This document shows positions 21,211-53,287 of a stretch of DNA of 64,000 nt, in pieces. Positions within the stretch are counted from its first letter, which is position 1, and each line of letters begins with the position of its first letter. Source of the stretch: a virus; IMG/VR virus record IMGVR_UViG_3300028840_004786. The stretch is one strand, 5' to 3'. Under the pieces are notes generated by a model. It was not told the origin of the DNA and made no database searches. It saw nothing but the letters and a program-made list of their open reading frames with translations. A program made the translations under genes and the position numbers.

Positions 21211-21404
21211 TATACTTTACTCCTATCATAAGAACGTTCGATTTTATCAACATTAAAAACACGAGTTATTTTTTCTTTCGTAAAAACCCATTTTGCTTTA
21301 ACAAAAAGAAAGACCTGAAACAATCCACGCTTACAAATAATCCCTTGAGTCATCATACTCTCTGGATTTGAAATTCTTCCCTTTGTTATTAAGCATAAAC
21401 TCAT
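21210..21404 (-). CDS. hypothetical protein
   Basis: 64-aa ORF with an ATGA overlap to the upstream fibre-like gene. Confidence 0.4.
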   Translation of the reverse strand: MSLCLITKGRISNPESMMTQGIICKRGLFQVFLFVKAKWVFTKEKITRVFNVDKIERSYDRSKV

Positions 21405-22228
21405 ATCGTTGTAGTTGTACTCGTTGTAGTTGTACTCGTTGTAGTGGTTGTGGAAGCATAAACTCTTTCACAAATATATTCAACTTGCTGCTGTCCCGAC
21501 CACTGAGCCGTAGCCTGATAAGTTGCAACAAGATCAGCCCCTGTTGCTTGCGAAACTGGTTTATTATAAAGCCTCAACCTTGCCGAAGTTAACAATGATT
21601 GACCTTGATAAACAGTATATTGCTGTTGATCAATTTTAATATTCTCCTGCATCAATCCAAGTGCCCTTTTTAACTCTGTTTCCATATCAACAATAGAAGC
21701 ATCTATTGAAGATATAGAAACATTAATAGAGGAGATATTAGTATTAATTGTTGAAATATTAGTATTTATAGTCGATTGATCATTTTTTATATTTAATAAT
21801 GCATCACTTTCTTGTTGAGTCAAACCGCTCGTTCCAGTCTCAAGTGCAAAAGCATCGGCTGGTACGGTATCACGAACGTTAACAGTATAACCACCTTGTG
21901 TTTTTAACCATGGATCACCGCCACCATCAACGAGAAGATAAGCATTGATAAGATATAATGTATGATCTGCTTCGTATGGCCTCATAAGCCAACCGAATTT
22001 TAAAAAAACATATTTTCCAAGGTATCTAACATTTGGAATAATTGTGTTTCCACCAACTGGCTGATAGAACGGGAACTTAAACTTATTCAAAGTACTATTT
22101 ACTTTCCAGTCGTACTTTGCTGCGCTGTAAATATCCTTAGCAACGTCAAGTGTTAAGGTTCCGCCCACTGGAGCCGTTGTGACATACATTATCCTGTTGA
22201 TGGTATCATAGTCAATATGAGTTGCCAT
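21401..22228 (-). CDS. tail-fibre-like protein with C-terminal poly-Thr tail
   Basis: The N-terminal module shares NSTLNKFKFP with 22658-24559. Contains the repeat INTNISTINTNISSINVSISSIDASI and ends ASTTTTTSTTTTSTTTTI. Confidence 0.6.
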   Translation of the reverse strand: MATHIDYDTINRIMYVTTAPVGGTLTLDVAKDIYSAAKYDWKVNSTLNKFKFPFYQPVGGNTIIPNVRYLGKYVFLKFGWLMRPYEADHTLYLINAYLLVDGGGDPWLKTQGGYTVNVRDTVPADAFALETGTSGLTQQESDALLNIKNDQSTINTNISTINTNISSINVSISSIDASIVDMETELKRALGLMQENIKIDQQQYTVYQGQSLLTSARLRLYNKPVSQATGADLVATYQATAQWSGQQQVEYICERVYASTTTTTSTTTTSTTTTI

Positions 22229-22240
22229 GTCACCGCTCTC

Positions 22241-22645
22241 TTATTTATTTCGCTTTGCGTAATCCAACTCAAGCGCCTTCATTCTATCATGACGCTGCTT
22301 AGGACTTAGATCAAGAGGAACTGAAACTCGCCTAATTACTTGATCCCATTTTGCCCAAACACTTTCAATCCTAATAACAATCCAAAAAGGATTTTTACCT
22401 CTTATATCCCATGTGTCAGCAAAATGACCCCATCCCTCGAATCCTGGAAGCCCTTCAATAAATTTCTTGAATCCTTTTGGGGCTCCGGTTGCAGAGACAC
22501 CTTCAAGTGCTTCAGTTCGAAAACGAAAACACCAATATCTCGCTCGCCGATGGGTTGTCCTTCCAGGAGTCTCTGACTTAAGATCAGAACCAACTAATAT
22601 CTGACCTTTAAAAAACGCAGATTTCTTCTTTTTACTTCTTTCCAT
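22241..22645 (-). CDS. hypothetical protein between fibre genes
   Basis: 134-aa ORF with GGAGGAG upstream. Confidence 0.5.
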   Translation of the reverse strand: MERSKKKKSAFFKGQILVGSDLKSETPGRTTHRRARYWCFRFRTEALEGVSATGAPKGFKKFIEGLPGFEGWGHFADTWDIRGKNPFWIVIRIESVWAKWDQVIRRVSVPLDLSPKQRHDRMKALELDYAKRNK

Positions 22646-22657
22646 GACTCCTCCATA

Positions 22658-24559
22658 TTACGTGGTTGTCGTCGTTGTAGTAGTTGTGGTTGTAGTGGTT
22701 CCAGGATTAAGATAGACACGCTCATCCGGTGCATTAACTGGAAATGAAAGCCCAGTGGTTGCAGTTATTGTAAATTCAGCAAATGTCCATTCACTTGCTC
22801 TTAACCCTTGGGCAACAATTACTACAGGTGCATCTTCACCAGAATCTCTTCCACCTTGAACATTATTGTCATAGTCAAAGTCAAACGATATACTTGACTG
22901 ATTAACGACACCTTGAATTGGGCTTGGCCCAGCATTATCATTTACAACAATCGCATCCAACGAATCAAATGGTTTTTCTTCAACCGTAACTGTGTCACCT
23001 GCTGTTTCATTAACCTGCGTACGACCAAGAACGTCATCATAGTCAACTGCCAATGTTGCAGGTGTTCCAGTCGCCTGTTTCAAACCATTGTTTGCCTCAT
23101 TCGTACTAAATCCAGCAATGGTGAAGTAATCATTAGCAGTCAAGTTACTAAAGTCACCATTTGATGCCGACGATAATGTTGCACTCGAGCCGGAGGCACC
23201 AGTAATTGAATAATCATCAGACGAATAAGCTCGAACATTCCTAAAATACATTCGATAAAGAGTGTTTGCATTTTTCTCGTCAACAAGATTATCACTGAAA
23301 ATCATGGATCCAGCTGCAACAAACGGATATGTTCTTTCAGTCGAAGTATTTGGAACGTCTTCACTATCCAAACCATAAGATGCCCCAACACCAACTGTAA
23401 TATCATGAAGAGCAATGTCGTTTGTAATGTTTGTATCAAAGTCATCAAAGCAAACTCCAGGCCAGCTATGAAGCGTATCACCAACATAGTAACAAAGCCG
23501 AACTGCAACCTCACCGTATACTGTCCCGTAACCATCGGTTTCTGGATCGTCGTTAATATTAGTGGATTTACGAAGTCGCTGTTGACAGAACTTATATATC
23601 TCATCTCTGTCGGGCCCAGTAGCCACGCCATTGTACTGCACTGCACGGTTAAACGCGTAGTAATTACTACCTATCTGCCGTTCACCAGGATAGGCTTCCC
23701 ACGTTGCTGTTCCACTAAACGAAGCCCATGGACCACTTTCTCCACCAGTAATCGTTCCGTCTCCAGTACAACGAGCCCAACGACCATCACCGTCCTGGAC
23801 AACATCATTAGTAACATAACTTTGAACTGCAGCAGGAGCAAACAATTGACCCTTGTAGTACTGGAGCTCCATATCTTGATAAGGATCATTTGCACCGTCG
23901 ATGTAAGCTTCCGTTGTTCCAGTATTTTTAATATCATCTTCATTTGAAAGTGGAAGCCTATAGGCAATATAAGTCAATGCCGAATAACCTTGCTCTGTCA
24001 ACAAGTTATAGTCATCGTAAGTGCGTTGCCACATCCGGAGATAACATTTCAAGAAATCGCGGAAGTCATTGCTTCCGCCATCAAAGATTTGAATTGCTTC
24101 ATCCAGAGGCCCAGTTTTATCAAAATCTGTTGTGTTTTGATCAAAGCCTTGTGTCTGTTGATAATTCGCCTGTTGATTATCATCGTATTGACCACCAAGC
24201 GAAATAATACAAGCATGCTCGGCACCATCTGTTTCCTGCCAGCCTGCATCACGCACAAGATCACGAGTTTGAGAATTCGCCGGACCCCAACCATATTGCC
24301 AAATAAACTTTGCCTCATAAATTGCCTTTATTGGAAACTTGAACTTATTAAGAGTTGAATTCGACTTCCATTCTTCTTTGAGAAAAGAATAGAGGCACTG
24401 CATAGTAACACCACTTTCAGAACCCGGATTGTTATCGTTCAAGTTTCCAGCAACACGTAGTTCTACAGTTTTCGCTGCTGTAACAATCGCGACTTCTTCG
24501 GTTGTTGGTGTACCATCCACATCCAATGTCAATTGATCAGGATCGACTATTTTAGCCAT
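22658..24559 (-). CDS. tail fibre / receptor-binding-like protein with C-terminal poly-Thr tail
   Basis: 633 aa. The N-terminal module is paralogous to 21401-22228. Ends NPGTTTTTTTTTTTTT. Confidence 0.6.
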   Translation of the reverse strand: MAKIVDPDQLTLDVDGTPTTEEVAIVTAAKTVELRVAGNLNDNNPGSESGVTMQCLYSFLKEEWKSNSTLNKFKFPIKAIYEAKFIWQYGWGPANSQTRDLVRDAGWQETDGAEHACIISLGGQYDDNQQANYQQTQGFDQNTTDFDKTGPLDEAIQIFDGGSNDFRDFLKCYLRMWQRTYDDYNLLTEQGYSALTYIAYRLPLSNEDDIKNTGTTEAYIDGANDPYQDMELQYYKGQLFAPAAVQSYVTNDVVQDGDGRWARCTGDGTITGGESGPWASFSGTATWEAYPGERQIGSNYYAFNRAVQYNGVATGPDRDEIYKFCQQRLRKSTNINDDPETDGYGTVYGEVAVRLCYYVGDTLHSWPGVCFDDFDTNITNDIALHDITVGVGASYGLDSEDVPNTSTERTYPFVAAGSMIFSDNLVDEKNANTLYRMYFRNVRAYSSDDYSITGASGSSATLSSASNGDFSNLTANDYFTIAGFSTNEANNGLKQATGTPATLAVDYDDVLGRTQVNETAGDTVTVEEKPFDSLDAIVVNDNAGPSPIQGVVNQSSISFDFDYDNNVQGGRDSGEDAPVVIVAQGLRASEWTFAEFTITATTGLSFPVNAPDERVYLNPGTTTTTTTTTTTTT

Positions 24560-24605
24560 TTAACTACCTCCAAAAAATAATAATAATAAAAGTTGTAATT
24601 CAATA

Positions 24606-26909
24606 TTACGTGGTAGTGGTTGTAGTAGTCGTTGTAGTCGACGTCGTTGTACAAGCATAAGTAACATTGGCATCCTTTCTTTGTTGTACAGGAATTGAAG
24701 CATCTTGATTCCCGAGTATTTCATCTTCGTATGCTATGAACTCATAACACACATGATGAATATGGATATCAACTGTTACTGGACCACCGTAAATATATGA
24801 ATAGTTAGTTTCGCCATTGGAACCTACATCCTCAACATGAAATATCTCAACGCTTCCTTCCATATAAGTTACTTCAGTTCCGGGTTTCAAGCCTGTTAAA
24901 GTATGAGTTCTCTGTACTGCCGGAATATATTGTGTACCATCATCCGCAGTAAAGTATTCAACAGTACCAGAACCTCTTTTTGCCAACCAAACACCTTCCG
25001 TCAAGTTGACATTTCTTTCCGTATAATATCCAGCCGCACCAGAATATAGTAATTGTGATTGCTCATCCTCACCCCAAATGACTATATCAAATATTTGACT
25101 ATAGGTATCTGGATCACTCGCCATAAAAGCAGCTAAATAATCATAAACAGTTTGTAACGATTTATTATCACAGTCAACAAGCCAAGTATATTCTTCGTAA
25201 AAGCCTGTTACATCAGCCTTCGCTGAAAATGAAGATACACTTCCAGTCAAAGTATAACTATCATTATCAACAAATTCAGTTCCATTCCAGGCCTTTAAAA
25301 CAAGAGTTCCAGAAGTAGCATCACCAAGATATTCTACTACAACACCATTCGCACCAGTTGTACTTTGAGTTATAGTCTCGCCAGCACTTGGAACACTACC
25401 CGTTCCTTGATCGTACTTAAGAACTTTTAATGGACGTGGATCGGTTTCACCTGTCGCATGGCGAGTCATAGTTATTCCACTTCCATTGCTCAAAGCAGTT
25501 GCTTGAGTTGTTTCAGAAACCCCAGTATCTGTTGTAAGCCCTATCGGCTGATCTATAGCTTCGGTTACAGTTAAGGCGCCAAGGAATGGGGAATAAGCGT
25601 GTTTATAAATATGAAGAGCAAAGTCACCACTTGTCTTGACATCAAGACCAACACCACCGTCATTAAATATTCTCTTTAGAATATCTACACTCCATTCTCC
25701 ATTTGAATCAGTGGCTCCATAATGCGGAACATTTTTATTTCTCGTTCCCTCGTATATATGGATTCTTGCTGTTTGTATTGCTGCACCAGCTGGGGTTGTC
25801 ACTATTGTGTCAAATGAAAATAACTCATGAACATATTCCTTTTTAGCATCAACACCGCCAGAAGTCGTTGTAGTTGTCGTACTTGCAAGAGATGCAGAAA
25901 AAAGTATATCATTTTGTGAAGAAATATCAGGATTCCAAGTTGGATTTACTACTTTCCATTTCTTATTATTATAAACCTGAATATATCTTTGCAAATTAAT
26001 AAACGAAACATTCTTGATAGTTATAGTGTCATCCACATCGTCATCAGAAGTAGTAAAACCATAACAATCAACAATATTTAATTCCTGAATATCAGTACTT
26101 CCATCAACCAATAAATAATCATTCGAAGTTCCTATTCCTTGTAATAGACTATCATATATTTCAATAACTCCAGTCATATCACAAGTATAGAGCCCTTTAA
26201 ATATCTTCGCTCTACGAAATACTACAGTCCCATTAAATTCCGTTTTATTATTTTTTACGCACGACATAAAGAAGTCATACAAATAAGCCAATCCACCACT
26301 TTGAATATCAAAAGCGAACTCTCCATCAACTGCTGGTGTCGGGACTATATAACCACCAGAAACAGGTTTTCCACCCGATAGAAATCCAACATACAGTGTT
26401 CCACCGCTGTAAACAATAATATCAGCTACGGTAGTACTACTATTATCTGCAGTCTCAATACTATGGCCGTCAAGTAAAGCTAATCCACCACCACTACTAA
26501 CTTCAATAATATCAGAGGCAGCCCAATCAGTAACTCTTTTCAAAAGTTCCTTGAAGGCATTTCCTTTACTATCCAAGTCCGTTGTTCCATATGGAATATG
26601 ATAAGTATCAGTTGAAGATGGTTGAACATCCCAATCTTCATGAACAGTACATGTAACAGGCCCACTTCCACTTTCAGCAATAATGTAACGAACTTCTTCA
26701 TCTGCATCACCCTTGCGAACATGGACAAGCCTCCCGACATAACTTGCAGTTCCATCTGTCGGAGGCCCAACAACATTCCCATTATTATTAGTGCCCATCG
26801 GATTTGAAAAAATTATTTCATCCGCTGCGGCAGAAGCTTGACTTGGTAATGCTTCACCAGTACTGTCTTTAGCATATGTAGTACAATCTAATGGATTGGC
26901 TATAGCCAT
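24606..26909 (-). CDS. large fibre/spike-like protein with internal and C-terminal poly-Thr tracts
   Basis: 767 aa, rich in Gly/Thr/Ser/Val (beta-rich). Internal STTTTTTSGG tract. Ends CTTTSTTTTTTTTTT. Confidence 0.55.
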   Translation of the reverse strand: MAIANPLDCTTYAKDSTGEALPSQASAAADEIIFSNPMGTNNNGNVVGPPTDGTASYVGRLVHVRKGDADEEVRYIIAESGSGPVTCTVHEDWDVQPSSTDTYHIPYGTTDLDSKGNAFKELLKRVTDWAASDIIEVSSGGGLALLDGHSIETADNSSTTVADIIVYSGGTLYVGFLSGGKPVSGGYIVPTPAVDGEFAFDIQSGGLAYLYDFFMSCVKNNKTEFNGTVVFRRAKIFKGLYTCDMTGVIEIYDSLLQGIGTSNDYLLVDGSTDIQELNIVDCYGFTTSDDDVDDTITIKNVSFINLQRYIQVYNNKKWKVVNPTWNPDISSQNDILFSASLASTTTTTTSGGVDAKKEYVHELFSFDTIVTTPAGAAIQTARIHIYEGTRNKNVPHYGATDSNGEWSVDILKRIFNDGGVGLDVKTSGDFALHIYKHAYSPFLGALTVTEAIDQPIGLTTDTGVSETTQATALSNGSGITMTRHATGETDPRPLKVLKYDQGTGSVPSAGETITQSTTGANGVVVEYLGDATSGTLVLKAWNGTEFVDNDSYTLTGSVSSFSAKADVTGFYEEYTWLVDCDNKSLQTVYDYLAAFMASDPDTYSQIFDIVIWGEDEQSQLLYSGAAGYYTERNVNLTEGVWLAKRGSGTVEYFTADDGTQYIPAVQRTHTLTGLKPGTEVTYMEGSVEIFHVEDVGSNGETNYSYIYGGPVTVDIHIHHVCYEFIAYEDEILGNQDASIPVQQRKDANVTYACTTTSTTTTTTTTTT

Positions 26910-27315: not shown

Positions 27316-27316
27316 C

Positions 27317-27889
27317 TCACCACCTCATAAAAAGTTTTTTCTGTCTCCAAATATGATAAACATAAAGTCCGGGCATCCTGTAATGCCTATAACCAGCCCG
27401 ATTAAGAGCTTGGCTATATTTATTATCTACACCGAGAAGTCTTTTCCTATTTTCATCAAACCCACCGCTTTTTCTCCATGCAGTTTTGTTAGTTAAAATC
27501 CAGAAACCCGACATTGCTCCTTTACATCTTTCAACTTTACTGCCGTACTCTTCGTAAAGTTTTCTTGCAAAAGAGAAATGGTCTTCAAGATTATTTGACT
27601 TTGGTGCATCTTTTGCTTTTTGTGCTGGGTTCCCTATTCTGTTTGTAACAGCCGATATCCAGCCGACAGGTTCACCCTTGAGTTGTTGAACAGCCGAACA
27701 GCACATTGTATACCAATGCTTATTAACAAGAAACAAGTCATGATCAATAAACAGAACCCATTCCGTTGTCGCTCTTTCCATTGCTCTATTATAAGCGCAT
27801 GCAAGCTGACCATTCAAGTCATATGGTATCTGTACTTGAATTGGTTCACGAATTGAAGAAACAGAATAAAATTTGTTGTAATTTTCCAT
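27317..27889 (-). CDS. glycosyltransferase family 2-like (GT-A)
   Basis: LACAYNRAMERATTEWVLFIDHDLFL matches the GT2 pattern (..A.N.g...a..e.i.flD.D). Confidence 0.6.
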   Translation of the reverse strand: MENYNKFYSVSSIREPIQVQIPYDLNGQLACAYNRAMERATTEWVLFIDHDLFLVNKHWYTMCCSAVQQLKGEPVGWISAVTNRIGNPAQKAKDAPKSNNLEDHFSFARKLYEEYGSKVERCKGAMSGFWILTNKTAWRKSGGFDENRKRLLGVDNKYSQALNRAGYRHYRMPGLYVYHIWRQKKLFMRW

Positions 27890-27891
27890 CC

Positions 27892-28575
27892 TTATCTCCT
27901 TTCAATATGTGAACTATCCTTAATTGGATAGTTTAAAAATTCCGACAGGCGTTTGCAAGTTCTTCCAGTTCTGCCGAGAAGATCATCCCTGAAATCAACC
28001 TGAAGAATTTTTAGTCTATTATAATAACCAACATAATAAAGGTAGTAATGACTCTTTCCATAATACTTCATAGACAATTCAACAAAGTGGTCTTTGTACT
28101 TTTCTTGATTACCCCTCTTTCTCATTGAATGCGCAATATCATCCGCATTTCTTCTCATCCAAATGATTCTCAAATCATTTAATAAATTAAGCTCTTTGAT
28201 AACTTCCATCCAAGGATAAAGAGTCAAAGAAGTTCTTGGGTCTTTCCAGCCCCAATTTTTAAATTCCGAGTTATATTCAATAATAAGTCCACGCATAATT
28301 TCGAGAACTTTATTATCTGCTTCACTTCCGTTCAATGGGTATATCATTGGTATTGCTGGAGAAAATGATTTAACTCTATAACCGTGCATTTTAAGAATCC
28401 TATCATTTATTCTTCTGAAACGGACATTCTCCCAAAATCCTTTTGGATTTTCTTTTATCGGTGGGGGATAGAATTCCTTTTTCTCTTCTCGACCCATAAC
28501 AATACCATTTTTATGTAAAAGCCCAGACATCGCCGATGTCCCGCTTCTGTGCATCCCAAGAACTACGACTATCAT
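27892..28575 (-). CDS. sulfotransferase-family protein
   Basis: N-terminal VVLGMHRSGTSAMSGLL (PAPS 5'-phosphosulfate-binding loop-like) followed by NPKGFWEN, as in bacterial sulfotransferase-family proteins. Confidence 0.55.
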   Translation of the reverse strand: MIVVVLGMHRSGTSAMSGLLHKNGIVMGREEKKEFYPPPIKENPKGFWENVRFRRINDRILKMHGYRVKSFSPAIPMIYPLNGSEADNKVLEIMRGLIIEYNSEFKNWGWKDPRTSLTLYPWMEVIKELNLLNDLRIIWMRRNADDIAHSMRKRGNQEKYKDHFVELSMKYYGKSHYYLYYVGYYNRLKILQVDFRDDLLGRTGRTCKRLSEFLNYPIKDSSHIERR

Positions 28576-29120
28576 AATAACTCCCGCGTAATTTTAGTTA
28601 TATGCCATATCGGGCCAGTAATTTTAACCCGATCACCAAACTTCTCATCTACTGCTTCAATGACACCATAACTTGGTTTATTAGTATAATCATCACCACA
28701 AAAAAGGCCATTCACTTTTAGTTTCGGCCACCAAACTTCAATATCTCGTTTAACGAATTCATAACCATGATTAGCGTCAATAAATATAAAGTCAAATTCA
28801 TAATCAGAAAATAACTCAGCCGCATCCTCACTTTTCATTTGTAAAGTTATTACTCGTTCACCAAAAGATTTTATATTTTCATCAAATCTTCTTCTTACTT
28901 TATTCCAATCAGCGTTATATATCTTTCCTTTCTTATTTGGTGAATGCGATTTAAATTCTTCATTATCTTCCCAAATATCCACGCAAACCAAACCCTTAAG
29001 AAGTGGAAATGATTCTAATAAAACTTTGGAGGTATCACCTTCAAATACACCAATCTCAGCCCCATTATGGTGCGATCTATTCTCCAACAGCCTTTTTAAT
29101 ATCTTGCCGTTCCTCGACAT
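28572..29120 (-). CDS. class I SAM-dependent (O-)methyltransferase, Methyltransf_24/TylF-like
   Basis: Contains GAEIGVFEGDTS (motif I) and FDFIFIDANHGYEFVKRDIEVWWPKLKVNGLFCGDDY. Start at 29120 (GGGAGG upstream) or 29135. Confidence 0.6.
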   Translation of the reverse strand: MSRNGKILKRLLENRSHHNGAEIGVFEGDTSKVLLESFPLLKGLVCVDIWEDNEEFKSHSPNKKGKIYNADWNKVRRRFDENIKSFGERVITLQMKSEDAAELFSDYEFDFIFIDANHGYEFVKRDIEVWWPKLKVNGLFCGDDYTNKPSYGVIEAVDEKFGDRVKITGPIWHITKITRELL

Positions 29121-30315
29121 CTTGCCTCCCTTCAAAATCAGGCTTAATATCTTTTCTCCAAGTACTCGTAGTCAATATTTTATCCATAATGATTGAATCT
29201 TTATATGGAATAATTGATTCCATAATTGAAGAAAGTTCCTTTTCATCTACAAGAATTGGATTAAGCCCTAATTCCAAAAATTTTTTATTATCCAGCGAAA
29301 GAATATTTTCTGCCATTTCTAATCTTGGATTCTTATAATATCTTATCTCCGTTCCGTTTATAGAAGATACTCTTTCGGCAAGTTGTTTCAAGTTCAATTG
29401 CTCTGTTGTTTGATTAAATATCTTTACTCCTTCACCCTTTTCAGGTGGGTTATTAACTGCTTTATCTATGCATCTTAAGGTGTCACGGATATGTATAAAA
29501 GCACGAGTCTGTCCACCAGTCCCATATACTGTAAGCGGATGACCTGCAATAGATTGAACCATAAACCGATTCAACACCGTTCCAAAATCACCATCATAGT
29601 CAAATCGATTTATAAGATCATTATGCATACTCGTTTCTTCAGTTTCAAGACCCCAAACAATCCCCTGATGCAAATCGGTTATACGAAGTAAATCATTTTT
29701 ACTGTAATATTGAAACATTATTCCATCAATTACTTTTGTCATATGATAAATACTTCCAGGCTGGGGCGGAAACATTATCTTCCTTGTTATCTCATTTTTA
29801 TTTCTATCCGCCATTACAGCATCAATGTAACCTTCTGGAATAAGAAAGTCTTCATTCCCACCATATCCATAAACTCCAGTAGAACCGAGGTGAATAAGAT
29901 GTGAATCAAGTCCAAGTGAAACAAGAGCACATAAAACATTGTGCGTTGAAAGAATATTATTGCGCACAGTATACAGCTTGTGAGCCGCATCTTTCATACT
30001 ATAAGGCGCAGCTCTTTGCTTTGCGAAGTGAATAATTATTTCGGGTTTTTCTTTTCTAAGAACATCCTTCAATCCATTATAATTTGAAGCGATATCTACA
30101 CGTTTGAAGGTGAAATTACTATGAGTCAAGCGACGCCACCTTTTAACCCTTTTTTCCATCGTCTGTATTGGTGTTAAACTCGGGCATTCAAGTTCGGCCT
30201 CAATCGTTCTTCGACTAAAATTATCCACGATGACGACAGTGTAGTCACGAGCGCTGAAATACAGGCTTGTAGGCCATCCACAATATCCGTCACCGCCAAG
30301 AACCATTATCTTCAT
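29077..30315 (-). CDS. sqdB: UDP-sulfoquinovose synthase (SQD1/SqdB/Agl3 family SDR)
   Basis: Collinear matches to remembered SQD1 motifs: VLGGDGYCGW, VDNFSRR, SLTPI, RW, HFAKQRAAPYSM, HLGSTGVYG, EGYI, YHMTKV, TDLHQGIVWGLETEET, NRFDYDGDFGTVLNRFMVQSIAGHPLTVYGTGGQTRAFIHIRDT and FNQTTEQ. Confidence 0.85.
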   Translation of the reverse strand: MKIMVLGGDGYCGWPTSLYFSARDYTVVIVDNFSRRTIEAELECPSLTPIQTMEKRVKRWRRLTHSNFTFKRVDIASNYNGLKDVLRKEKPEIIIHFAKQRAAPYSMKDAAHKLYTVRNNILSTHNVLCALVSLGLDSHLIHLGSTGVYGYGGNEDFLIPEGYIDAVMADRNKNEITRKIMFPPQPGSIYHMTKVIDGIMFQYYSKNDLLRITDLHQGIVWGLETEETSMHNDLINRFDYDGDFGTVLNRFMVQSIAGHPLTVYGTGGQTRAFIHIRDTLRCIDKAVNNPPEKGEGVKIFNQTTEQLNLKQLAERVSSINGTEIRYYKNPRLEMAENILSLDNKKFLELGLNPILVDEKELSSIMESIIPYKDSIIMDKILTTSTWRKDIKPDFEGRQDVEERQDIKKAVGE

Positions 30316-31133
30316 AATCCTGCCTCCTTTTTAAACTTTTCGACACAATCATCTTTTGCAAGTTTATGAACGTTTCCAGTCCAAATAATATCACCCTTCT
30401 TATTTCTTCCAGGCAATCCAAAAGACAAGGGTAATGTTCCATAATTTAGCTTTCGCTCAACCTCCTTAAAAGCAAGCCAACAGCTTGCTTGGCCATAACC
30501 AATAGGTCTTTCTAATGGCGGAACTTTATCAATGTAGTGAATCCATCGATCAAAGAAAAGTCGAACATCATTTGCTGGTTTAATCAAAATACAGTCAATT
30601 GTTATTCGGGCTTTTACTATATTATGTCCCGGACGAAGTTTCAAATAAATATTAACATCTTCCAACATTTTTGGAACCATGTCGAGTGGTTTCCTAAATA
30701 AGGTATCTATATCAAAATGGGCAATATATTCCAAATTAAATCCCGCCCACTTCGGTGACTCATTCTCCGGTATTTTCCAAGAGTACAATAACTTATTTAA
30801 CGATTTTACTCTATCATCACCAGCTATCATTAGCTTCCATACCTTATTTTTATTACTCACATACCTCCCCTCGCATTGTTTTTTAAACGTTTGAAGCTGT
30901 TTTAATGTTACCCCAGCCTTTAAAGCTAATCGTTTCATATTTAAAGGCTGGTTATTGATGTGAAGTAATTCTCGCGGATAACTGGAATACAATAATTCCA
31001 TATCTTCAAAAGATAAACTCCTACCCTCCAGCCAGACAGGTAAATAGTAAGGGGCTGATACCATGCGAAGACTTTTGAGAAATACTTCACCCATCTTAAC
31101 AAATCCGTTTGTTAAATAAGAATGTACTAACAC
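30312..31133 (-). CDS. hypothetical protein, possibly a nucleotide-sugar transferase (DxD-like FDIDT)
   Basis: 273-aa ORF inside the glycan cassette with an AHFDIDTLF motif. The functional call is weak. Confidence 0.3.
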   Translation of the reverse strand: MLVHSYLTNGFVKMGEVFLKSLRMVSAPYYLPVWLEGRSLSFEDMELLYSSYPRELLHINNQPLNMKRLALKAGVTLKQLQTFKKQCEGRYVSNKNKVWKLMIAGDDRVKSLNKLLYSWKIPENESPKWAGFNLEYIAHFDIDTLFRKPLDMVPKMLEDVNIYLKLRPGHNIVKARITIDCILIKPANDVRLFFDRWIHYIDKVPPLERPIGYGQASCWLAFKEVERKLNYGTLPLSFGLPGRNKKGDIIWTGNVHKLAKDDCVEKFKKEAGL

Positions 31134-40876: not shown

Positions 40877-41290
40877 TCAAACCGTCGTGGTAGTACTGGT
40901 TGTAGTTGTTGACGTTGATTGAAGTACTGCAGATAGACTTCTGACATCAAAAGTCATCTTTACATTTCTTCTCCACTTACTATCGTAGAAAGTATTTTGA
41001 AAATATTCTCCTTCAAGGTTTGCAATTTTAACATTATATGTATTCCCCCCAACTTCGGGATTCCAAATAAATGTTGTTCCAACTTGAAGATACATTATTC
41101 TCAACTGCTTATACATCCCTCTTGGCATAAACTCCCATTCAAGAACAACTTTCGTTCCTTGAAGTATTGCACTCCATTCAAAGATCGCCGAACCTCCATA
41201 GGTTGCAGTAATTGCTACGGTCTTTTGCTTTTCTGGAATGCTCATTACATCTGGATTCCAGTAGAATGTATATCCGCCTAAAGTTTGCAT
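40877..41290 (-). CDS. distal-tail-position protein with C-terminal poly-Thr tail
   Basis: 137 aa, immediately downstream of the TMP. Ends STSTTTTSTTTTV. Confidence 0.5.
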   Translation of the reverse strand: MQTLGGYTFYWNPDVMSIPEKQKTVAITATYGGSAIFEWSAILQGTKVVLEWEFMPRGMYKQLRIMYLQVGTTFIWNPEVGGNTYNVKIANLEGEYFQNTFYDSKWRRNVKMTFDVRSLSAVLQSTSTTTTSTTTTV

Positions 41291-43827
41291 TAGTAGTTTA
41301 ACTCCTCTTCAATAACTCGAAGAACCACTGGTTCTATTTCAGCTTCGAGTCGTCTTCCAATAAAAGATAAATTCTCTGGAAGTACAATTTTTGGTCTAAT
41401 GCTAATTTGATTTCCTTCAACATTCCTAATATCACCTGATCTATTAATTACATTTGAAACACTTCCACCACCAGCAAGGTAAGTACTCCTGGGAATGCTG
41501 AAAGAAGAACTTGCAAATTGTAGTAATACTTCACGTGGGATTTTCTTCTGCCTAATTACTTCCATACCTCGCTCTGTATAATGTCTCACAACATCAACTG
41601 GTTGCATGAACTCCCCAGCTGTTGCTTTTATATTAATATTATCAGCCTTTGGATGTGGGCTTTTACCTTCAACCAATCCTCCACCTGCCATCTGTTGTTG
41701 ACGTATTAACTGAACTTTCGCCAATCCGGCAGCAATAGCAACTGCAGCAGCAGTAGTTGCCAATGATGGACCAACAATTGGAATTCCAACCATAGCATTG
41801 TAAGCCTTTGTAGCTGATTCATATGTAGCAATTAGGGCACGAGCAATTGATGCAGCTTTAAAAAGAGTAAATAATTCTTTACTCTTTTCACCAGAAGCTT
41901 TATACCAATCAAGAAACATATCAGTCATATCCGTCAAAGTACTTTGAATACTGCTAATATATGTTTCCCATATTACTTTTCTCTGATTAGCCGCAACCTG
42001 TTCTTGCTCAAGAATATGTTGATTCTTTGCTTCGTTTAGTTGTTCTTCAACTTCATATCCTTTCTTTTGCATTTCAAGAAGAGCATCAATTTCTTGCTGT
42101 TGCCTTCTCATCATTTGCTTATTTTCTAATTCAAATCGCTTAGAAAGGTTCGGCCCTTGCTGAACTTGAAGACTAAGAATCCGTTCTTTAATCTCAGTTA
42201 TAATTTCTTGAGATTCTTTTTCAACTTGGTTTCTTTCTTCAATTGCTTTTCTGTACTCTTGCTCAAGACTTATAGACTGTCTTATTTGCTCCTGGCGAAG
42301 CGAAAACATCTCCGCCCTTATTTGTTCCCTTTGCCCTTCCTTTGCGGCAAGCCCAAGTCTTTTCTGAAGGGATTTCTGCTGAATTTCAAATTGCTCATTA
42401 AGCAATTGCTCCCTTCTTCTAAAGTACTCGTCAAGACTAACATTATGCTGTTCCCATTGCTGTTCCAAAGCCGAAACAAGCGTCTTATTTATTTCCATTG
42501 CTTTTTTAGCTTCGGCGCTTGCTCGTGCAGCGAGTAATCCAGGTTCTATTGGCTTCGGTGGTGGTTTCGGTCTTGGTGGTGGAGTTATTTCAAAGTCTTC
42601 AGGTTTTTTTCGTGGTTCAAAAGCTTTCCTTCTTGCTTCAGCTAAAGTCTCAAGTGCTTTCTCAATCAACTTTGAAAAGCCTTCCAGTGCTTCTTCTGTT
42701 TGGTATAACTCCTCAGCAGAATATGTAGCAGAATTTGTTAACTCATCAATTTCTTTTTGCAACATTCGAACTCTCTCAGCTGCACGAGTTTGCCAATCCT
42801 CACCCCATATCCTTTGATAGTACTCAGCTTCCTTTCCACCTTCATCTAAAGCTTTAAATAAACGATTAAATTCCATTCTCATTGCAGTCAATCGAAATTT
42901 CTTTGCTTCAACAGCAATTCTATTAAGAGACCATTCAGCTCCCATTGCTGCATCAAGAAAAAACTTTACTGCACGTGTCATTAATTGAAACGAAGTAATA
43001 ACAGTGACTGCAACTCGGGCTGCCCATAGATCGAACTCTCCACTGGCAATCATCTTATCAATATATTTATTCAATTCAGCAAGCTGAAATTTAATATGTT
43101 CAAAAACCCCAGTCTTCATTACTCGTCGCTGGAATTCTGTCCAGTATGAAGCAAGAGTGGAAGTCAAACCAGACCAAGAGTTCATCATTTTTCTTGCTGA
43201 ACCGCCGAACTCTTTTTCCATACCAGTTAATATAGCTTTGACAATTTTGTTAACATCCGTTTTGGTTCTTTGTAACTGTTCAACAGTCATTCCAAGTTCT
43301 TGAGTCAAGTATTTCCTGGCATTAATACCAATTTCGGATAACTGGTTTAACTCTTCTCCGGCAAGCTTTCCAAGTGTTTGCATCTGTCCTAATGCTCTTG
43401 CAACACGAGGCATAGCATCTTCCCCAAACAACACAGCAACATCCACAAGGGTCTCCATCTTCTTAAGTGTCGGGTCCAGACCCATTGCTTGCATCATAGT
43501 AAAAGCTTGAACTGTTTTCTGGGTATTGACAGGCATTCGCAGAGCCCATTCATTCAATGCTTCAAGCGTCTGCGTTCCTTTGCCTTTGGTGAGAGCATCC
43601 AGCTTTGTTTCCATAGCTTCAAAACTGGCTGCTGTATTTATGAATTGTCTACTAAGAAGGCCGATTCCAAGACCTGCAATTGCTCCCTGTAAACTAAAGA
43701 CAGCACCTGTCAATCCTGCCATGCCTCTTTTAACATAGTCGGTGACACGAGTAAGCTGTCTTAGTCCACGAGTTGCTTGATCCCGGAGTCTTATAATGAT
43801 TTGAAGTGTTTCGGACTGAGTCGCCAT
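41290..43827 (-). CDS. tape measure protein
   Basis: 845 aa, highly helical with Gln/Glu/Lys-rich coiled regions and hydrophobic Gly/Ala segments. Located directly after the frameshifted chaperone pair. Confidence 0.85.
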   Translation of the reverse strand: MATQSETLQIIIRLRDQATRGLRQLTRVTDYVKRGMAGLTGAVFSLQGAIAGLGIGLLSRQFINTAASFEAMETKLDALTKGKGTQTLEALNEWALRMPVNTQKTVQAFTMMQAMGLDPTLKKMETLVDVAVLFGEDAMPRVARALGQMQTLGKLAGEELNQLSEIGINARKYLTQELGMTVEQLQRTKTDVNKIVKAILTGMEKEFGGSARKMMNSWSGLTSTLASYWTEFQRRVMKTGVFEHIKFQLAELNKYIDKMIASGEFDLWAARVAVTVITSFQLMTRAVKFFLDAAMGAEWSLNRIAVEAKKFRLTAMRMEFNRLFKALDEGGKEAEYYQRIWGEDWQTRAAERVRMLQKEIDELTNSATYSAEELYQTEEALEGFSKLIEKALETLAEARRKAFEPRKKPEDFEITPPPRPKPPPKPIEPGLLAARASAEAKKAMEINKTLVSALEQQWEQHNVSLDEYFRRREQLLNEQFEIQQKSLQKRLGLAAKEGQREQIRAEMFSLRQEQIRQSISLEQEYRKAIEERNQVEKESQEIITEIKERILSLQVQQGPNLSKRFELENKQMMRRQQQEIDALLEMQKKGYEVEEQLNEAKNQHILEQEQVAANQRKVIWETYISSIQSTLTDMTDMFLDWYKASGEKSKELFTLFKAASIARALIATYESATKAYNAMVGIPIVGPSLATTAAAVAIAAGLAKVQLIRQQQMAGGGLVEGKSPHPKADNINIKATAGEFMQPVDVVRHYTERGMEVIRQKKIPREVLLQFASSSFSIPRSTYLAGGGSVSNVINRSGDIRNVEGNQISIRPKIVLPENLSFIGRRLEAEIEPVVLRVIEEELNY

Positions 43828-44385: not shown

Positions 44386-44958
44386 TTAAGAAGTAGTCGT
44401 TGTGGATGTGGTAGTAGTAGTGGTTGAAGTTTCGCTTGAACTATATAGTACAGTGCCGTATGGCGATTCAGGATGGTTGGCCGTATCGGATAACCCAGTA
44501 AAGAGATATTCCATTTCCGCCCAAGCCGTTCCATCACCAACTAACTGGATTGGGCCATTCGGGCCAATTGTGCCTTTCCAAAAGTTCCAAGTTTTATTTG
44601 GGCCATGTGGATTGTCTTCAATGAAGCGGACGGCATACTCCTTTTCCATCTCTTCCGTGTCCATCATATAAAGATTCAATCCGGCTTGCTCGGCCATCAA
44701 AAACTTTTTCAGGTTGATTGCGGCATGCTCGTCCAAAGTTATTCTCAACATATATTCCGCACTGATAACCGGATTTGCATCCTTTACCCTGAAACCACTT
44801 CGATTGGAATAATGCGGAAGCCTTTCAATCTGTGGCTCATATTCCGCCCTTACTGCATTACCCATATCAAAATAGGCCCCAGGAGCTCCGCCCGAAAATT
44901 CAGCGATGTAGAAAATCCCTTTCAGGATTGTGTAATTTTTAGTTGAATGCGGTTGCAT
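44386..44958 (-). CDS. putative major tail tube protein with C-terminal poly-Thr tail
   Basis: 190-aa ORF directly upstream of the chaperone/TMP genes. Ends SSETSTTTTTTSTTTTS. Confidence 0.6.
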   Translation of the reverse strand: MQPHSTKNYTILKGIFYIAEFSGGAPGAYFDMGNAVRAEYEPQIERLPHYSNRSGFRVKDANPVISAEYMLRITLDEHAAINLKKFLMAEQAGLNLYMMDTEEMEKEYAVRFIEDNPHGPNKTWNFWKGTIGPNGPIQLVGDGTAWAEMEYLFTGLSDTANHPESPYGTVLYSSSETSTTTTTTSTTTTS

Positions 44959-46791: not shown

Positions 46792-46971
46792 TTAAGAAGT
46801 GGTTGTTGTCGTCGTTGTAGTGGTTGTGGTTGTAGTGGTGCTGGTTGTTCCCCAAAGAACATTTCCAGCACCCTTCGAGTTAAGTAAACCAATGAACCAC
46901 CGCATCTCCGGATGGACGCCCGGATTGTTAGCAAGACGACGTCGTCTAATTGCGGTTGATTTTTTCGCCAT
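46792..46971 (-). CDS. 59-aa protein: 41-aa basic head plus 18-residue poly-Thr tail (possible capsid decoration/cement protein)
   Basis: Not in the ORF track (under 60 aa). AAGGAG 8 nt upstream of ATG 46971. Sequence MAKKSTAIRRRRLANNPGVHPEMRWFIGLLNSKGAGNVLWGTTSTTTTTTTTTTTTTTS. Immediately downstream of the MCP gene. Confidence 0.65.
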   Translation of the reverse strand: MAKKSTAIRRRRLANNPGVHPEMRWFIGLLNSKGAGNVLWGTTSTTTTTTTTTTTTTTS

Positions 46972-47025: not shown

Positions 47026-47988
47026 TTAGGAAGTAGCGAGGTTCGTAATCTTTCCGTGCATTTCTTCCGGACCATAGTCAATGCCTATATGACCATAGAT
47101 TTGACCCTTTTCACTTGCACCAGTCTTACTCAGTTCTTCGTAAAAAAGAACTCCTTTCTCAGGAACGGGAAGGAATACTGGTGAACAGAATGCAAGGTCG
47201 GCAACCAATAGCGTTGCCGCCGGAACATTGGGTGCCCAAACAATGCCGAGTTCGGCGAAGTCAGTCTCAATCATCTTGATATTTGTTCCACCGATGTTTC
47301 TATCCTCGGGGGCATATCCATAGACATTTGAAAACTGTTGTTTCTGGAAGGCACCGCAAAATACTACAGGCTGCAAGAACTCTGCTCCTGCATCCGCCAT
47401 GGTTCTCAGCAATTGATCAATCAAAGCTTTACTCAAAGCTGCACTTGAAGCATCCACGGCATTTGTGGAGCAACCAGTAATAACGCCTCTTGTCTTCGCT
47501 GCAACGGCAGCTGAAGTTGCCTGTTGATAGGCGCCATTAAGGAAGGTGTAGTCAATGTCAACAGCCAACTGACGCATATGGGCATTAATCTGAAAATCAC
47601 GCTCATTGGTAACGGGCTGACCATCTGTAACATCAATCAAACCAGTTGTCGCGTCGGCCACGACCTGACCAATAACGGACTGCTTTGCATAACTCACGGA
47701 TACTTGTCGCTGCCAGATTTGACAAGTATTAACATCCTGCCCACGGACATAAGTCCAAGGTGTGGGGGCAGTCAAAGAAGCAGTCTCTGTGATTGCCGGT
47801 TGGGAAGCACTTTCAAGCGCCCAAGGCTGGGCCAAGGGAAACTGAAAGTCGGCGACTGTCCGGACTCCGGTACCTTGGAGCCCACCAATCATGTTAAGGA
47901 ACGGTGTTCTGTTTGCACCGATCAAGTAAAGTTCACCCGTATAGTTCGGGCAGTTCCAAACAGTTGCAGCAGCGTTTACATTCGCCAT
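47026..47988 (-). CDS. major capsid protein
   Basis: 320-aa ORF directly after the scaffold gene. Composition and length are typical of HK97-fold MCPs, and the N-terminal region resembles N4/SU10-type MCPs from memory. Confidence 0.8.
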   Translation of the reverse strand: MANVNAAATVWNCPNYTGELYLIGANRTPFLNMIGGLQGTGVRTVADFQFPLAQPWALESASQPAITETASLTAPTPWTYVRGQDVNTCQIWQRQVSVSYAKQSVIGQVVADATTGLIDVTDGQPVTNERDFQINAHMRQLAVDIDYTFLNGAYQQATSAAVAAKTRGVITGCSTNAVDASSAALSKALIDQLLRTMADAGAEFLQPVVFCGAFQKQQFSNVYGYAPEDRNIGGTNIKMIETDFAELGIVWAPNVPAATLLVADLAFCSPVFLPVPEKGVLFYEELSKTGASEKGQIYGHIGIDYGPEEMHGKITNLATS

Positions 47989-48024
47989 TTTAAACTCTCC
48001 TTGAAAAGTTTTTTAATTGAGTAA

Positions 48025-48915
48025 TCAGGCTGCCTGTTGCTTTCTCTTCAAATCCCAAATTTTGTTCTTTAGAGAGATTGCAAGTGTTGTCTTCTTGGCA
48101 GCCACAGCTTCCTGGTACTGCTTCTGGAGAGTTGCAATATCGGACGTATCTTCTTTCTCACGACCACCGCCTTGCCCACCTTGTGCTCCCGAACCGCCTC
48201 TGTCGCCACGAATGTAGTTATCCTTTTGTGGATACTGTTCCCACAGTGAAGCCATACCTTCATGGAAATCGGCAGGCTCCCCCGGACGTGCAGCACTATA
48301 TATTAACTCACCATTGTCATAGTAGACTCTGGTTAAAAGTTTGTCGGGATCGGTTGGGCTTTCTTCAACTTTAAAATTCTTCCCGAAGATGGCTTCCGCT
48401 GCGTCGGGTGTCATAGTTGTTTTTCGATTTTCTCCAGTAAAGAGCGGTGATTTTGAAAATTCAGACAGAATCGTCAGCTTGAAAATTTGAGAATCTTTTC
48501 TTGCCACTGTTGACTTGTAATCCTCAATTGTTTTTTGAACAGAAGCTTTTACTTCATCAATCTCGGTTTTATGCGCTTCGTTCATCTGACGTTTCATTGA
48601 CTCCACCTTTTCAGCTTTGAGCCAATCCTTTTCGTTAAAGTTTGACACAGTCTCCAAAGCCTTAACAGCTTCCGCTTTCCAGGCTTCAATATCTTCAATA
48701 TCATCGAAGATGGAGAACTTCGTCTTCAACTTTTCGTTTGACTCACGATGACCTTTGTTCTCTTTGCCGAGATCAATTATTTTCTGGTACATTGATGGAA
48801 CGTCGACAGGAACTTCACTGTTTTTGTCATCGATGAAAATAGGCTTTCCGTCTTCCGACACCTTTGGGGTCTTACCATCCTCTTCCAAAGCAAGTTTCAC
48901 AAACATGGTTTCCAC
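48025..48915 (-). CDS. scaffolding protein
   Basis: 296 aa, highly charged and helical, immediately upstream of the MCP gene. Confidence 0.7.
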   Translation of the reverse strand: METMFVKLALEEDGKTPKVSEDGKPIFIDDKNSEVPVDVPSMYQKIIDLGKENKGHRESNEKLKTKFSIFDDIEDIEAWKAEAVKALETVSNFNEKDWLKAEKVESMKRQMNEAHKTEIDEVKASVQKTIEDYKSTVARKDSQIFKLTILSEFSKSPLFTGENRKTTMTPDAAEAIFGKNFKVEESPTDPDKLLTRVYYDNGELIYSAARPGEPADFHEGMASLWEQYPQKDNYIRGDRGGSGAQGGQGGGREKEDTSDIATLQKQYQEAVAAKKTTLAISLKNKIWDLKRKQQAA

Positions 48916-49123: not shown

Positions 49124-49148
49124 ATACTTCATGAGCTAAATGAAGTAT
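49124..49148 (-). terminator. 9-bp hairpin after gene 49187-49477 (weak terminator or RNA processing site)
   Basis: ATACTTCAT, a 7-nt loop, then ATGAAGTAT. No strong U-run follows. Confidence 0.25.
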
Positions 49149-49186
49149 AGTATATTGAAAGTAATCCGTATAGTTAATAATGAATA

Positions 49187-49477: not shown

Positions 49478-49478
49478 T

Positions 49479-51863: not shown

Positions 51864-51865
51864 AA

Positions 51866-52489
51866 TTATTCCTTAAGAAAAAAGCGAGTAAGAGTATTTA
51901 ATTTTAAACGTTCATCTTCATACAATAACTTCACAGGAGAAATTTGAAGAATCGTTTTTTGAACCCATTTATCTTTAATTGCCCTGTCCCAGTCGTGGAC
52001 AGCCACTACGTCATTCTTCTTTAAATAAGGGCCGAAAGTTTTAAACTCCCATGGCTTGTCTATACAATCACAAAATAGAACTGATCTTCCAGGCTGTTTA
52101 ATGAGTTCAATAACTTTATTTGTCATTTTCTCATTGTATAGATTTCCAGTATTCATTTTCTTTGCTAATTGAATCAATCGCATTACTGGCTTAGACCGAT
52201 ATCTCCTCTTCGGCCTAAAATCAAACCCATGATAATCGGCTTCAATATTATAACACCAAAGAGCAAAGAAAACACTGGTTCCACCAAAGTCACAGCCTAA
52301 TTCCAAGAACCGTTTTATATCACCATTCGACTGGAAAAACTTCTCCCATATAAAAAAAGCAGTAAAAGACTGATCGCATTGCGTTCCAAGGAAAGTGCAA
52401 TTTGGATTATTAATAAATTCATTAAGACCAGTATTTTTAGAATAATCTATCTTAAAGCCACTCAGTTTAAGAACTTTCCTTCGATTCAT
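51866..52489 (-). CDS. possible class I methyltransferase-like protein (CmcI-like)
   Basis: FLELGCDFGGTSVFFA resembles SAM-binding motif I. 207 aa. Confidence 0.35.
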   Translation of the reverse strand: MNRRKVLKLSGFKIDYSKNTGLNEFINNPNCTFLGTQCDQSFTAFFIWEKFFQSNGDIKRFLELGCDFGGTSVFFALWCYNIEADYHGFDFRPKRRYRSKPVMRLIQLAKKMNTGNLYNEKMTNKVIELIKQPGRSVLFCDCIDKPWEFKTFGPYLKKNDVVAVHDWDRAIKDKWVQKTILQISPVKLLYEDERLKLNTLTRFFLKE

Positions 52490-52685
52490 CTATCTCTCCA
52501 ACGTCAATTACTTTTACTTTTCCCATACGAATAATAAACGCGCAATTCGCATTTCCACACTCAAATTCAAGTATGTTATTCCAAGAACCAATCCTGTCAA
52601 CATGGATATACCAAACTTGACACCCACATTCAGGGCAAGCCGCAACTACTTGCAACGAATTACTTATGTTTATTACTTCGCCCAT
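52467..52685 (-). CDS. zinc-ribbon protein
   Basis: CPECGC...CGNANC motifs. 72 aa. Confidence 0.45.
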   Translation of the reverse strand: MGEVINISNSLQVVAACPECGCQVWYIHVDRIGSWNNILEFECGNANCAFIIRMGKVKVIDVGEIDESKESS

Positions 52686-53287
52686 TATGTTGTCGTTGTA
52701 GTACTGGTTGTCGTTGTGGTAGTTGTCGTTGTGGTAGAAACAGGAAGTTGCATTAAAGATAGCTCATTGATAAAGAACTCGTGGTTCTCGTTTCCACCTA
52801 TATCTGGATGGGCTACACGAAGGCGAACATTATCCGTTCCACTTGCCCACCAATCACCGTCGCCAGCCAATTCCACGTCTATTATTTCATCAGCACTTTG
52901 CTGCTGTGATAAAGCGCCACCCGATACGGCAACCCAATCAGTTAAGTTATAATCGTATGCCTCTATCCTTGGGGCATTAGGAGTCCCATGGTTTCCAGTA
53001 TAATAACCAACAAATCGTGCCCGAAGACGATTGCCCTTAGGAACGGGCTTGAAATCAAAAGTAATAACTGCTGCACCAACATCAGTGACTTCATTAACGT
53101 GAAGACTCCACTTGTCTGTAAACCAAGTATACTTTTCCCCTTCACGTTCGGACGAGTTATTATCAGTTCCAGGATCTACTACTACCTGCCAAGCATATCT
53201 CCAGGAACCTTCCCTATTACCGAGAAGTCTTTGCTTCTGCCCATGCGCAGGTCTTTTTGGATATCTTATTTCAGGTTTCTTTGCCAT
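52685..53287 (-). CDS. head-module protein (beta-rich) with C-terminal poly-Thr tail
   Basis: 200 aa, located between the portal and MuF genes. Ends VSTTTTTTTTTTSTTTTT. Confidence 0.5.
   Translation of the reverse strand: MAKKPEIRYPKRPAHGQKQRLLGNREGSWRYAWQVVVDPGTDNNSSEREGEKYTWFTDKWSLHVNEVTDVGAAVITFDFKPVPKGNRLRARFVGYYTGNHGTPNAPRIEAYDYNLTDWVAVSGGALSQQQSADEIIDVELAGDGDWWASGTDNVRLRVAHPDIGGNENHEFFINELSLMQLPVSTTTTTTTTTTSTTTTT

Follow-up and report, generated by a model that had tools for sequence, protein, structure and literature searches.

A stretch of 64,000 nucleotides of viral DNA (IMG/VR record IMGVR_UViG_3300028840_004786; the whole stretch is referred to as the window) carries nine late open reading frames (ORFs) on the minus strand that end in a tract of Thr and Ser. 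These C-terminal tags are 12–19 residues long and dominated by Thr, and they are followed by at most one further residue (I or V) and the stop codon, which is TAA in seven cases and TGA in two. The tagged set includes one head-module protein, the protein encoded after the capsid gene, the tail tube, one distal tail protein and five fibre-like proteins. A tenth late protein carries similar tracts as linkers between its domains. Inside the late operon, between fibre-like genes, lies a cassette (27317-32416) coding for three glycosyltransferases and three sugar-modifying enzymes. The tagged proteins and the cassette genes are collected in Table 1.

No tag is found on the terminase (55776-57167), the major capsid protein (47026-47988), the scaffold (48025-48915), the tape measure protein (41290-43827) or the putative portal. 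With a greedy gene call, tagged ORFs number 0 of 39 on the plus strand and 8 of 58 on the minus strand (Fisher P = 0.02); this call missed the 59-residue ORF, over which a spurious ORF lies, and once it is included the minus strand has nine. An earlier note on this DNA had described the nine tails, three inter-domain linkers in the tenth protein, and the absence of tags from plus-strand ORFs and from the terminase, portal, major capsid, scaffold and tape measure proteins. The coordinates of all nine ORFs, the tract before each stop, the residue positions of the linkers and the gene counts bear this description out. Read-through or stop-codon recoding as the origin of the tags was rejected, because the stops are TAA or TGA, the long ORFs are normal in genetic code 11, and each gene downstream of a tagged ORF has its own GGAGG-type ribosome-binding site.

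Table 1. Tagged virion proteins and glycan cassette genes in the window (positions in nucleotides; aa, amino acids).
Position	Strand	Product	Tag or supporting evidence
21401-22228	minus	Late protein, 275 aa	Tag 21404-21454
22658-24559	minus	Tail/fibre protein, 633 aa	13-Thr tag, 22661-22699
24606-26909	minus	Tail/fibre protein, 767 aa	Tag 24609-24650
27317-27889	minus	Small GT2-like glycosyltransferase, 190 aa	phrog_14179 and phrog_26101 glycosyltransferase, E = 2e-8
27892-28575	minus	Sulfotransferase	Pfam Sulfotransfer_3, E = 1.7e-7, 32.2 bits against a cut-off of 27
28572-29135	minus	Methyltransferase (Methyltransf_24)	Pfam, E = 2.7e-17
29077-30315	minus	UDP-sulfoquinovose-synthase-like SDR, nucleotide-sugar-modifying	NF041015; Pfam Epimerase, E = 3.7e-19
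30312-31133	minus	GT8-like (GT-A fold) glycosyltransferase, 273 aa	DxD motif, fold
31133-32416	minus	GT4-family (GT-B fold) glycosyltransferase, 427 aa	Profile, motif, fold
32524-34140	minus	Beads-on-a-string protein, 538 aa	Poly-Thr linkers, not a C-terminal tag
34158-35216	minus	Tail protein, 352 aa	phrog_6368; tag 34161-34199; tagged orthologues in L061, L062
35228-35764	minus	Tail-fibre-like protein, 178 aa	19-residue tag, 35231-35290; tagged orthologues in L061, L062
40877-41290	minus	Protein directly after the tape measure gene, 137 aa	Tag 40880-40918
44386-44958	minus	Tail tube protein, 190 aa	Tag TSTTTTTTSTTTTS, 44389-44430
46792-46971	minus	Protein immediately after the major capsid gene, 59 aa	Tag forms 18 of 59 residues, 46795-46848
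52685-53287	minus	Head-module protein, 200 aa	Tag 52688-52738; between the putative portal and 794-aa head protein genes

The composition of the tracts argues that they are maintained for the residues they encode. With Thr at 6.2% of residues outside the tracts, chance cannot yield runs of this length. Use of the four Thr codons is much more even within the tracts (ACA 53, ACC 37, ACT 47, ACG 29) than elsewhere (ACA 255, ACC 67, ACT 325, ACG 85). Adjacent identical codons are found in 21 of 177 cases (0.12, against 0.20 expected) and are significantly depleted (shuffle P = 0.002); the tract DNA therefore actively avoids repeats. A slippage microsatellite or contingency tract was rejected on both grounds, the mixing of all four ACN codons and the depletion of identical neighbours. 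In 2.9 million viral contigs, just 77 stretches match the pattern (ACN)10-TAA. The irregular codon mix had led the earlier note to the same view, which the codon counts and the shuffle test confirm and extend. On this codon evidence the tracts are selected as protein and not as DNA.

The tags are conserved over large distances. Among relatives, which include 60 loci with related capsid genes taken from IMG/VR, the same orthologues are tagged at only 45–80% protein identity, and the length and sequence of the tags drift. These orthologues are the small post-capsid ORF, the tail tube, the protein after the tape measure and the fibre-like proteins. A search of 5.8 billion proteins gave 31 tail-tube homologues (48–100% identity). 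Every one has a C-terminus rich in Ser/Thr, and a 7-of-10 rule is satisfied by 28. The tails consist of about 90% Ser and Thr. On the tail tube of L024, L032, L038, L043 and P0138, poly-Ser replaces poly-Thr. Because Ser substitutes for Thr on the same tail tube, the conserved property is the hydroxyl side chain, and this interchangeability is what an O-linked acceptor would predict. The codon mix, the repeat depletion and the Ser/Thr interchange thus agree in placing selection at the amino-acid level. The poly-Ser tails of L024, L032, L038 and L043 also contain an occasional K, R or C, and the GC content of these loci is higher (0.48–0.57). Nor is the tag confined to this phage; a large uncultured clade conserves it, and other lineages have it as well.

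The individual tagged proteins show how the tracts are placed. The tail tube matches the major tail protein family phrog_807 (E = 1.9e-18) over its N-terminal tube domain only, and its homologues carry PF27730. In the phrog_807 family the C-terminal part is an Ig-like domain that faces outward, and the tagged end of the tail tube should, by analogy, protrude from the tail. The 59-residue protein is a candidate head decoration protein. It is preceded by its own AAGGAG ribosome-binding site, and relatives keep a tagged ORF of 50–88 residues in the same post-capsid position. The possibility that this ORF is a read-through extension of the capsid was rejected; it is in frame with the capsid gene here and out of frame in L001, L006 and L008. 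For the 200-residue head-module protein family searches gave no match, and L003 has an ORF of 198 residues with a similar tail. Orthologues of the protein after the tape measure are tagged as well in L006, L042, L030 and L037. Among the fibre-like proteins, the orthologue of the 633-residue protein in L061 (80% identity) ends in PTTTSSTTTTAP, and that of the 767-residue protein in the same locus (68% identity) is also tagged. The 767-residue protein has an additional internal tract at residues 343-350 that the earlier note overlooked. The 178-residue protein matches the tail fiber family phrog_7049 (E = 5.9e-11). The beads-on-a-string protein, which matches the phosphodiesterase-like family phrog_24476, has internal tracts at residues 35-51, 259-271, 280-286 and 503-512, which make three linker positions (35-51, 259-286 and 503-512). 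It contains an internal duplication with two homologous domains of about 200 residues (52-255 and 290-535). Its orthologues in L061 and L062 are 1000–1089 residues long, about twice the length, with four to five poly-Thr tracts, so the number of domains varies among relatives.

The GT4-family enzyme of the cassette has 110 homologues, many of which carry a precomputed PF00534 annotation, although the window enzyme itself scores below the Pfam reporting level. Both glutamates of its EX7E motif, E304 and E312, are invariant in 40 homologues. The AlphaFold2 model (pLDDT 94.4) shows the two Rossmann domains of a GT-B fold, and the best Foldseek matches are GlgM, MshA, BshA and WaaG (E about 1e-12). 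Motif and fold agree with CAZy family GT4, whose members are retaining GT-B enzymes. We regard this enzyme as the conserved core of the cassette and a candidate initiating protein O-glycosyltransferase. The GT8-like protein has 105 homologues in which D141 and D143 of the DxD motif are invariant; it has no Pfam match. Its model (pLDDT 95.4) is closest in Foldseek to LgtC, glycogenin, XXYLT1 and the Skp1 galactosyltransferase, and its fold and motif agree with CAZy family GT8 (retaining, GT-A); it is a candidate glycan-elongating enzyme. The small GT2-like protein shows weak Pfam GT2 matches under the cut-off and is 50–56% identical in five relatives. The SDR enzyme matches NCBIfam NF041015 (SqdB-like) over the full length (1-382 of 384) with 328.6 bits, below the 575-bit equivalog cut-off; NF041015 appears to be its nearest family, and its product is not certain. 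All six genes are syntenic in L061, L062, L147 and L155, and four of the six are present in L148. These assignments uphold the earlier view of the region as a glycosylation machinery.

The GT4 gene is the only gene of the cassette that is widespread. A profile scan of viral contigs finds it at 77 further loci with 25–53% identity, and a six-frame ORF scan places C-terminal Ser/Thr-tagged ORFs within 10 kb of it at 40 of these. Nearly all of the tagged ORFs lie on the same strand as the GT4 gene, usually 1–3 kb upstream. As controls, 23 loci were selected neither for tags nor for GT4 (distant capsid relatives, contigs of metagenome-assembled genomes, lambda and parts of Che8). With the stricter greedy gene call, tags are present at 32/77 GT4 loci and 0/23 control loci (P = 6e-5). 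At the level of genes, 43 of 1690 are tagged at GT4 loci and 0 of 426 at controls (P = 1.3e-4).

Many of the tagged loci belong to a second lineage (L226-L259, L183, L217 and L223; for example L183:6536-11275) with a different capsid family, Phage_capsid_4 / Mu gpT-like. Here the genes run in the order scaffold, capsid, one to three small proteins (90–150 residues), a few further genes and GT4. About half the length of the small proteins is a Ser/Thr tail with a median of about 50 residues. The loci were collected by their capsid gene, and the 20 with at least 5 kb of downstream sequence were taken as informative: 18 have tags and GT4, one has tags only and one has neither. The contig of the tags-only locus ends 6 kb downstream. 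The locus with neither is L263, the most divergent member. The GT4 gene of this lineage is followed by a sugar cassette of uronic-acid type, with genes for a methyltransferase, a GT2 enzyme, a UDP-glucose dehydrogenase, an epimerase/dehydratase and an Asn-synthase-like amidotransferase. The earlier note had asked whether the tails co-occur with glycosyltransferases in related phages or are equally frequent in relatives that lack them. GT4 accompanies the tags in independent lineages, and the one informative untagged relative, L263, is also without GT4.

Two further loci show GT4 next to Ser/Thr-rich proteins. In an HK97/lambda-like siphovirus of GC 0.56 (L146:6555-11278), the GT4 gene (40% identity) directly follows the tail tube gene and precedes the tail-assembly genes that lie before the tape measure gene. 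The capsid protein of this phage ends in ASASSTTTA and the tail tube in AGSTTTTTS. In L145:8967-18396, the GT4 gene (31% identity) directly follows an ORF of 337 residues that is almost wholly (SSST)n, and is itself followed by four GT2 genes, two genes for SPASM-domain proteins and methyltransferase genes. The reality of this (SSST)n ORF is uncertain, as a public gene call puts a minus-strand gene across part of it.

Multiple tags are also seen on L100/L101, L112, L068, L109, L074 and L063, with two to three poly-Thr-tailed proteins each and GC from 0.35 to 0.67. These contigs have little or no homology to the late proteins of the window, at most a 40%-identical tail tube (L063). The L109 stretch contains only tail genes, and its tags are on proteins of the tail or baseplate region. 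With these contigs the phenomenon reaches beyond the two lineages analysed here. Outside these metagenomic phages, three divergent GT4 queries gave no tblastn match in 50,697 GenBank phages. The only named cellular homologue is from Gottfriedia acidiceleris, a Bacillaceae species (L265:4940-9284, 25% identity). It was rejected as a cellular precedent, since its neighbour is an acidic protein of 851 residues built of repeats of about 50 residues (QTDSAIAHQDSTESDF) with no obvious link to poly-Ser/Thr.

From these comparisons we consider it likely that the Thr/Ser tails are disordered and serve as acceptor tags, which late-expressed enzymes of the phage itself O-glycosylate in the cytoplasm. Virion assembly takes place in the cytoplasm, so the modification must draw on cytoplasmic nucleotide sugars. 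The GT4 enzyme would most likely transfer the first sugar from a nucleotide sugar to the Ser/Thr hydroxyls of the tract, and its substrate would be any protein that ends in such a tract or contains one. We infer this acceptor from the co-occurrence of enzyme and tags. The GT8-like and GT2-like transferases may then lengthen the glycan, and the SqdB-like enzyme, the methyltransferase and the sulfotransferase may supply or decorate unusual sugars, probably anionic (sulfo) and methylated. The predicted product is an anionic, partly methylated glycan. As a simple homopolymer at a free C-terminus, the tag would be portable. Tags on a head accessory protein, the tail tube, distal tail proteins and fibres would surround the whole virion with a mucin-like glycan brush. 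Different lineages retain GT4 and the tags while exchanging the genes of the sugar pathway, and their glycans would differ accordingly. The brush may serve to shield the particle from proteases, antibodies or defences, to set its colloidal behaviour, or in adhesion. The proposal of the earlier note that the tails are acceptor tags for one phage-encoded machinery thus finds support in comparative genomics, and each part of it that could be computed held up.

Several observations weigh against this interpretation. The case for modification of the tags is one of comparative genomics, and a GT-B/GT4 fold is silent on the acceptor; structurally similar viral enzymes include DNA glycosyltransferases. 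The major capsid protein is untagged here, unlike in Che8. Host identification failed, and the pool of available nucleotide sugars depends on the host. At 37 of the 77 GT4 loci there is no tag within 10 kb; in lineage A the large distance between cassette and tagged genes explains this at least in part (L155 compared with L035 and L103). The co-occurrence counts are phylogenetically non-independent; the independent genomic contexts behind them number perhaps five or six. Among the multi-tag contigs found by the poly-Thr pattern scan, several have no GT4 in the 8–14 kb searched, a length too short to be informative, and L101 carries two GT2 genes about 3 kb from a tagged gene in place of GT4. 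Since stretches and not whole contigs were compared, tagged genomes without any transferase may exist.

An alternative is that the tails are unmodified, hydrophilic and disordered "entropic bristles" or spacers that increase solubility and reduce sticking, and that the cassette targets phage DNA, the host envelope or a receptor. We consider this unlikely, although poly-Ser/Thr is indeed intrinsically disordered and hydrophilic, the acceptor of GT4 is assigned indirectly, and DNA glycosyltransferases are among the phage GT-B enzymes. For a bristle G, N, Q, E or K would serve equally well, yet the tails are made almost wholly of Ser and Thr. The bristle model leaves unexplained why unrelated lineages have a specific GT4 family beside their Ser/Thr-tailed virion proteins and why this family is missing where there are no tags, and the cassette sits within the structural operon. 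For DNA as the target, no hydroxymethyl-pyrimidine pathway was found among the early genes scanned, only ThyX. Still less probable is that the tails accept another O-linked modification such as phosphorylation, or are glycosylated by host enzymes with the phage GT4 as a mere accessory. Interchange of Ser and Thr would suit any hydroxyl-directed modification; however, family searches found no kinase in the late region or the cassette, and GT4 and tags are co-inherited over lineages with GC from 0.31 to 0.56, and so probably in different hosts, which argues for a phage-autonomous system. The idea that the tracts are functionless by-products at the DNA level, either slippage microsatellites or half-linkers left by recombination of modular fibre domains, has in its favour the like tracts between the domains of the beads-on-a-string protein and the variable domain number of its orthologues, but it is largely refuted by the mixed codons with few identical neighbours and by a C-terminal tag kept in essentially all 31 tail-tube homologues, even at 48% identity, as well as in the small post-capsid protein, the tags being confined to late virion genes, and we regard it as very improbable.

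The remainder of the window gives little indication of the host. There are no tRNAs in the window, and its DNA has no match among GenBank phages. Capsid relatives in genome collections (L140-L144) are found in metagenome-assembled genomes of Desulfobacteraceae, Zixiibacteriota, Desulfovibrio, Actinomycetota and Bacteroidales. An assignment to five phyla points to mis-binned phage contigs and gives no reliable host. One of these relatives is on an 83-kb contig, the size of a whole phage. Strong GGAGG sites argue against Bacteroidota. Thr-rich low-complexity regions are typical of archaea (PMC6821194). An archaeal host was nevertheless judged unlikely, because the replication genes of the window (DNA polymerase III alpha, RecA, ThyX) are of bacterial type. 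The polymerase (4830-8213, plus strand) has PHP, core and finger domains and a C-terminal fusion to a domain of the uracil-DNA-glycosylase superfamily (residues 971-1104). A gp32-like single-stranded-DNA-binding protein (9539-10795, plus strand) carries, close to its C-terminus, a long tract of Asp (DDDDDDDFDDDDDDDD). The poly-Ser ORF at 10507-10662 is an antisense reading of this tract and was rejected as spurious.

To our knowledge, glycosylation of the phage particle has so far been shown only for a few mycobacteriophages. Here a distinct glycosyltransferase family and a homopolymeric acceptor tag recur jointly in at least three unrelated phage lineages, none of which has a cultured member. 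That GT4 and the Ser/Thr tags travel together suggests that sugar-coating of virions is a wider, tag-based system. More generally, a modular "glyco-tag" system, in which a dedicated GT4 recognises homopolymeric Ser/Thr tails, may be common to many uncultured tailed phages from metagenomes of anoxic sediment and wetland type; we see this proposal as evenly balanced. If it holds, any virion protein could join the mucin-like coat by gaining a tail, and coats would be diversified by cassette swaps, here with sulfoquinovose-like, sulfated and methylated sugars and elsewhere with amidated uronic acids. Virion glycosylation would then be a widespread phage trait rather than a peculiarity of actinobacteriophages, with a bearing on particle stability, on adhesion and on escape from proteases, antibodies or surface defences of the host. 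Viruses would be expected to bear sulfated or sulfoquinovose-type glycans. The minimal pair of tag and enzyme would be portable and genetically encodable for cytoplasmic protein glycoengineering, and C-terminal Ser/Thr tails would provide a cheap sequence marker of glycosylated virion proteins in metagenomes.

Three known systems are similar to that of the window. The Ser/Thr/Pro-rich linkers of bacterial and fungal glycoside hydrolases, and mucin domains, are likewise extended, glycan-bearing and protease-resistant homopolymeric tracts of hydroxy amino acids, and the internal linkers of the beads-on-a-string protein look just like them. However, glycoside hydrolase linkers connect a pair of folded domains and receive their glycans outside the cytoplasm, whereas the tracts of the window are mostly terminal and their modification would have to precede virion release, in the cytoplasm.

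The serine-rich repeat protein (SRRP) adhesins of streptococci and staphylococci are glycosylated on Ser/Thr-rich tracts by GtfA/GtfB and by elongating GT8 and GT2 enzymes. This is again cytoplasmic O-glycosylation of long low-complexity Ser/Thr tracts, initiated by a GT4 (GT-B) enzyme and extended by GT8 and GT2 enzymes, the same three enzyme classes as in the cassette. The acceptors differ; those of the window are short C-terminal tails of virion proteins, while SRRP acceptors are repeats that run to hundreds of residues and belong to secreted adhesins. An accessory Sec system is absent here. A Pfam scan found no DUF1975 domain and no GtfB partner, and GtfA is neither among the PDB profile matches to the window GT4 at E ≤ 10 nor among its top 50 Foldseek matches.

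The closest case is that of the mycobacteriophages. Freeman and co-workers reportedly described virion O-glycosylation in Che8, Corndog and Myrna, and their abstract is said to note little sign of it elsewhere. The O-glycans are on the C-termini of capsid and tail tube subunits and depend on phage glycosyltransferases (Freeman et al. 2023, Cell Host Microbe 31:1216, as relayed in PMC12619734 and PMC12363180). The window resembles these phages in having phage-encoded transferases, which would act in the cytoplasm, putative acceptors at the C-terminal ends of abundant virion subunits, the tail tube among them, a predicted glycan coat on both head and tail, and methyltransferases that accompany the transferases. 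It differs in that the phages are uncultured, of low to moderate GC and not actinobacteriophages, and in that the sugar toolkit has SqdB-like and sulfotransferase genes. The capsid and tail tube of Che8 end in ...FNKTGS and ...EQYSDGS, without homopolymeric tracts, while in the window at least nine different proteins have long poly-Thr/Ser tags and the major capsid protein has none. Che8 gp108-110 have no significant similarity to the window GT4; in BLASTP against all late proteins the best match (E = 0.033) is a segment of 25 residues between gp109 and the GT2-like protein. Homology of the window GT4 to GtfA or to the Che8 enzymes was rejected, as no such similarity was found. On these searches the window has no transferase homologous to Che8 gp108-110 or Corndog gp38. 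Among the loci seen, the arrangement in L146 comes closest to the Che8 paradigm. The system of the window would thus share the working principle of mycobacteriophage virion glycosylation while using an enzyme that appears to lie outside that enzyme family.

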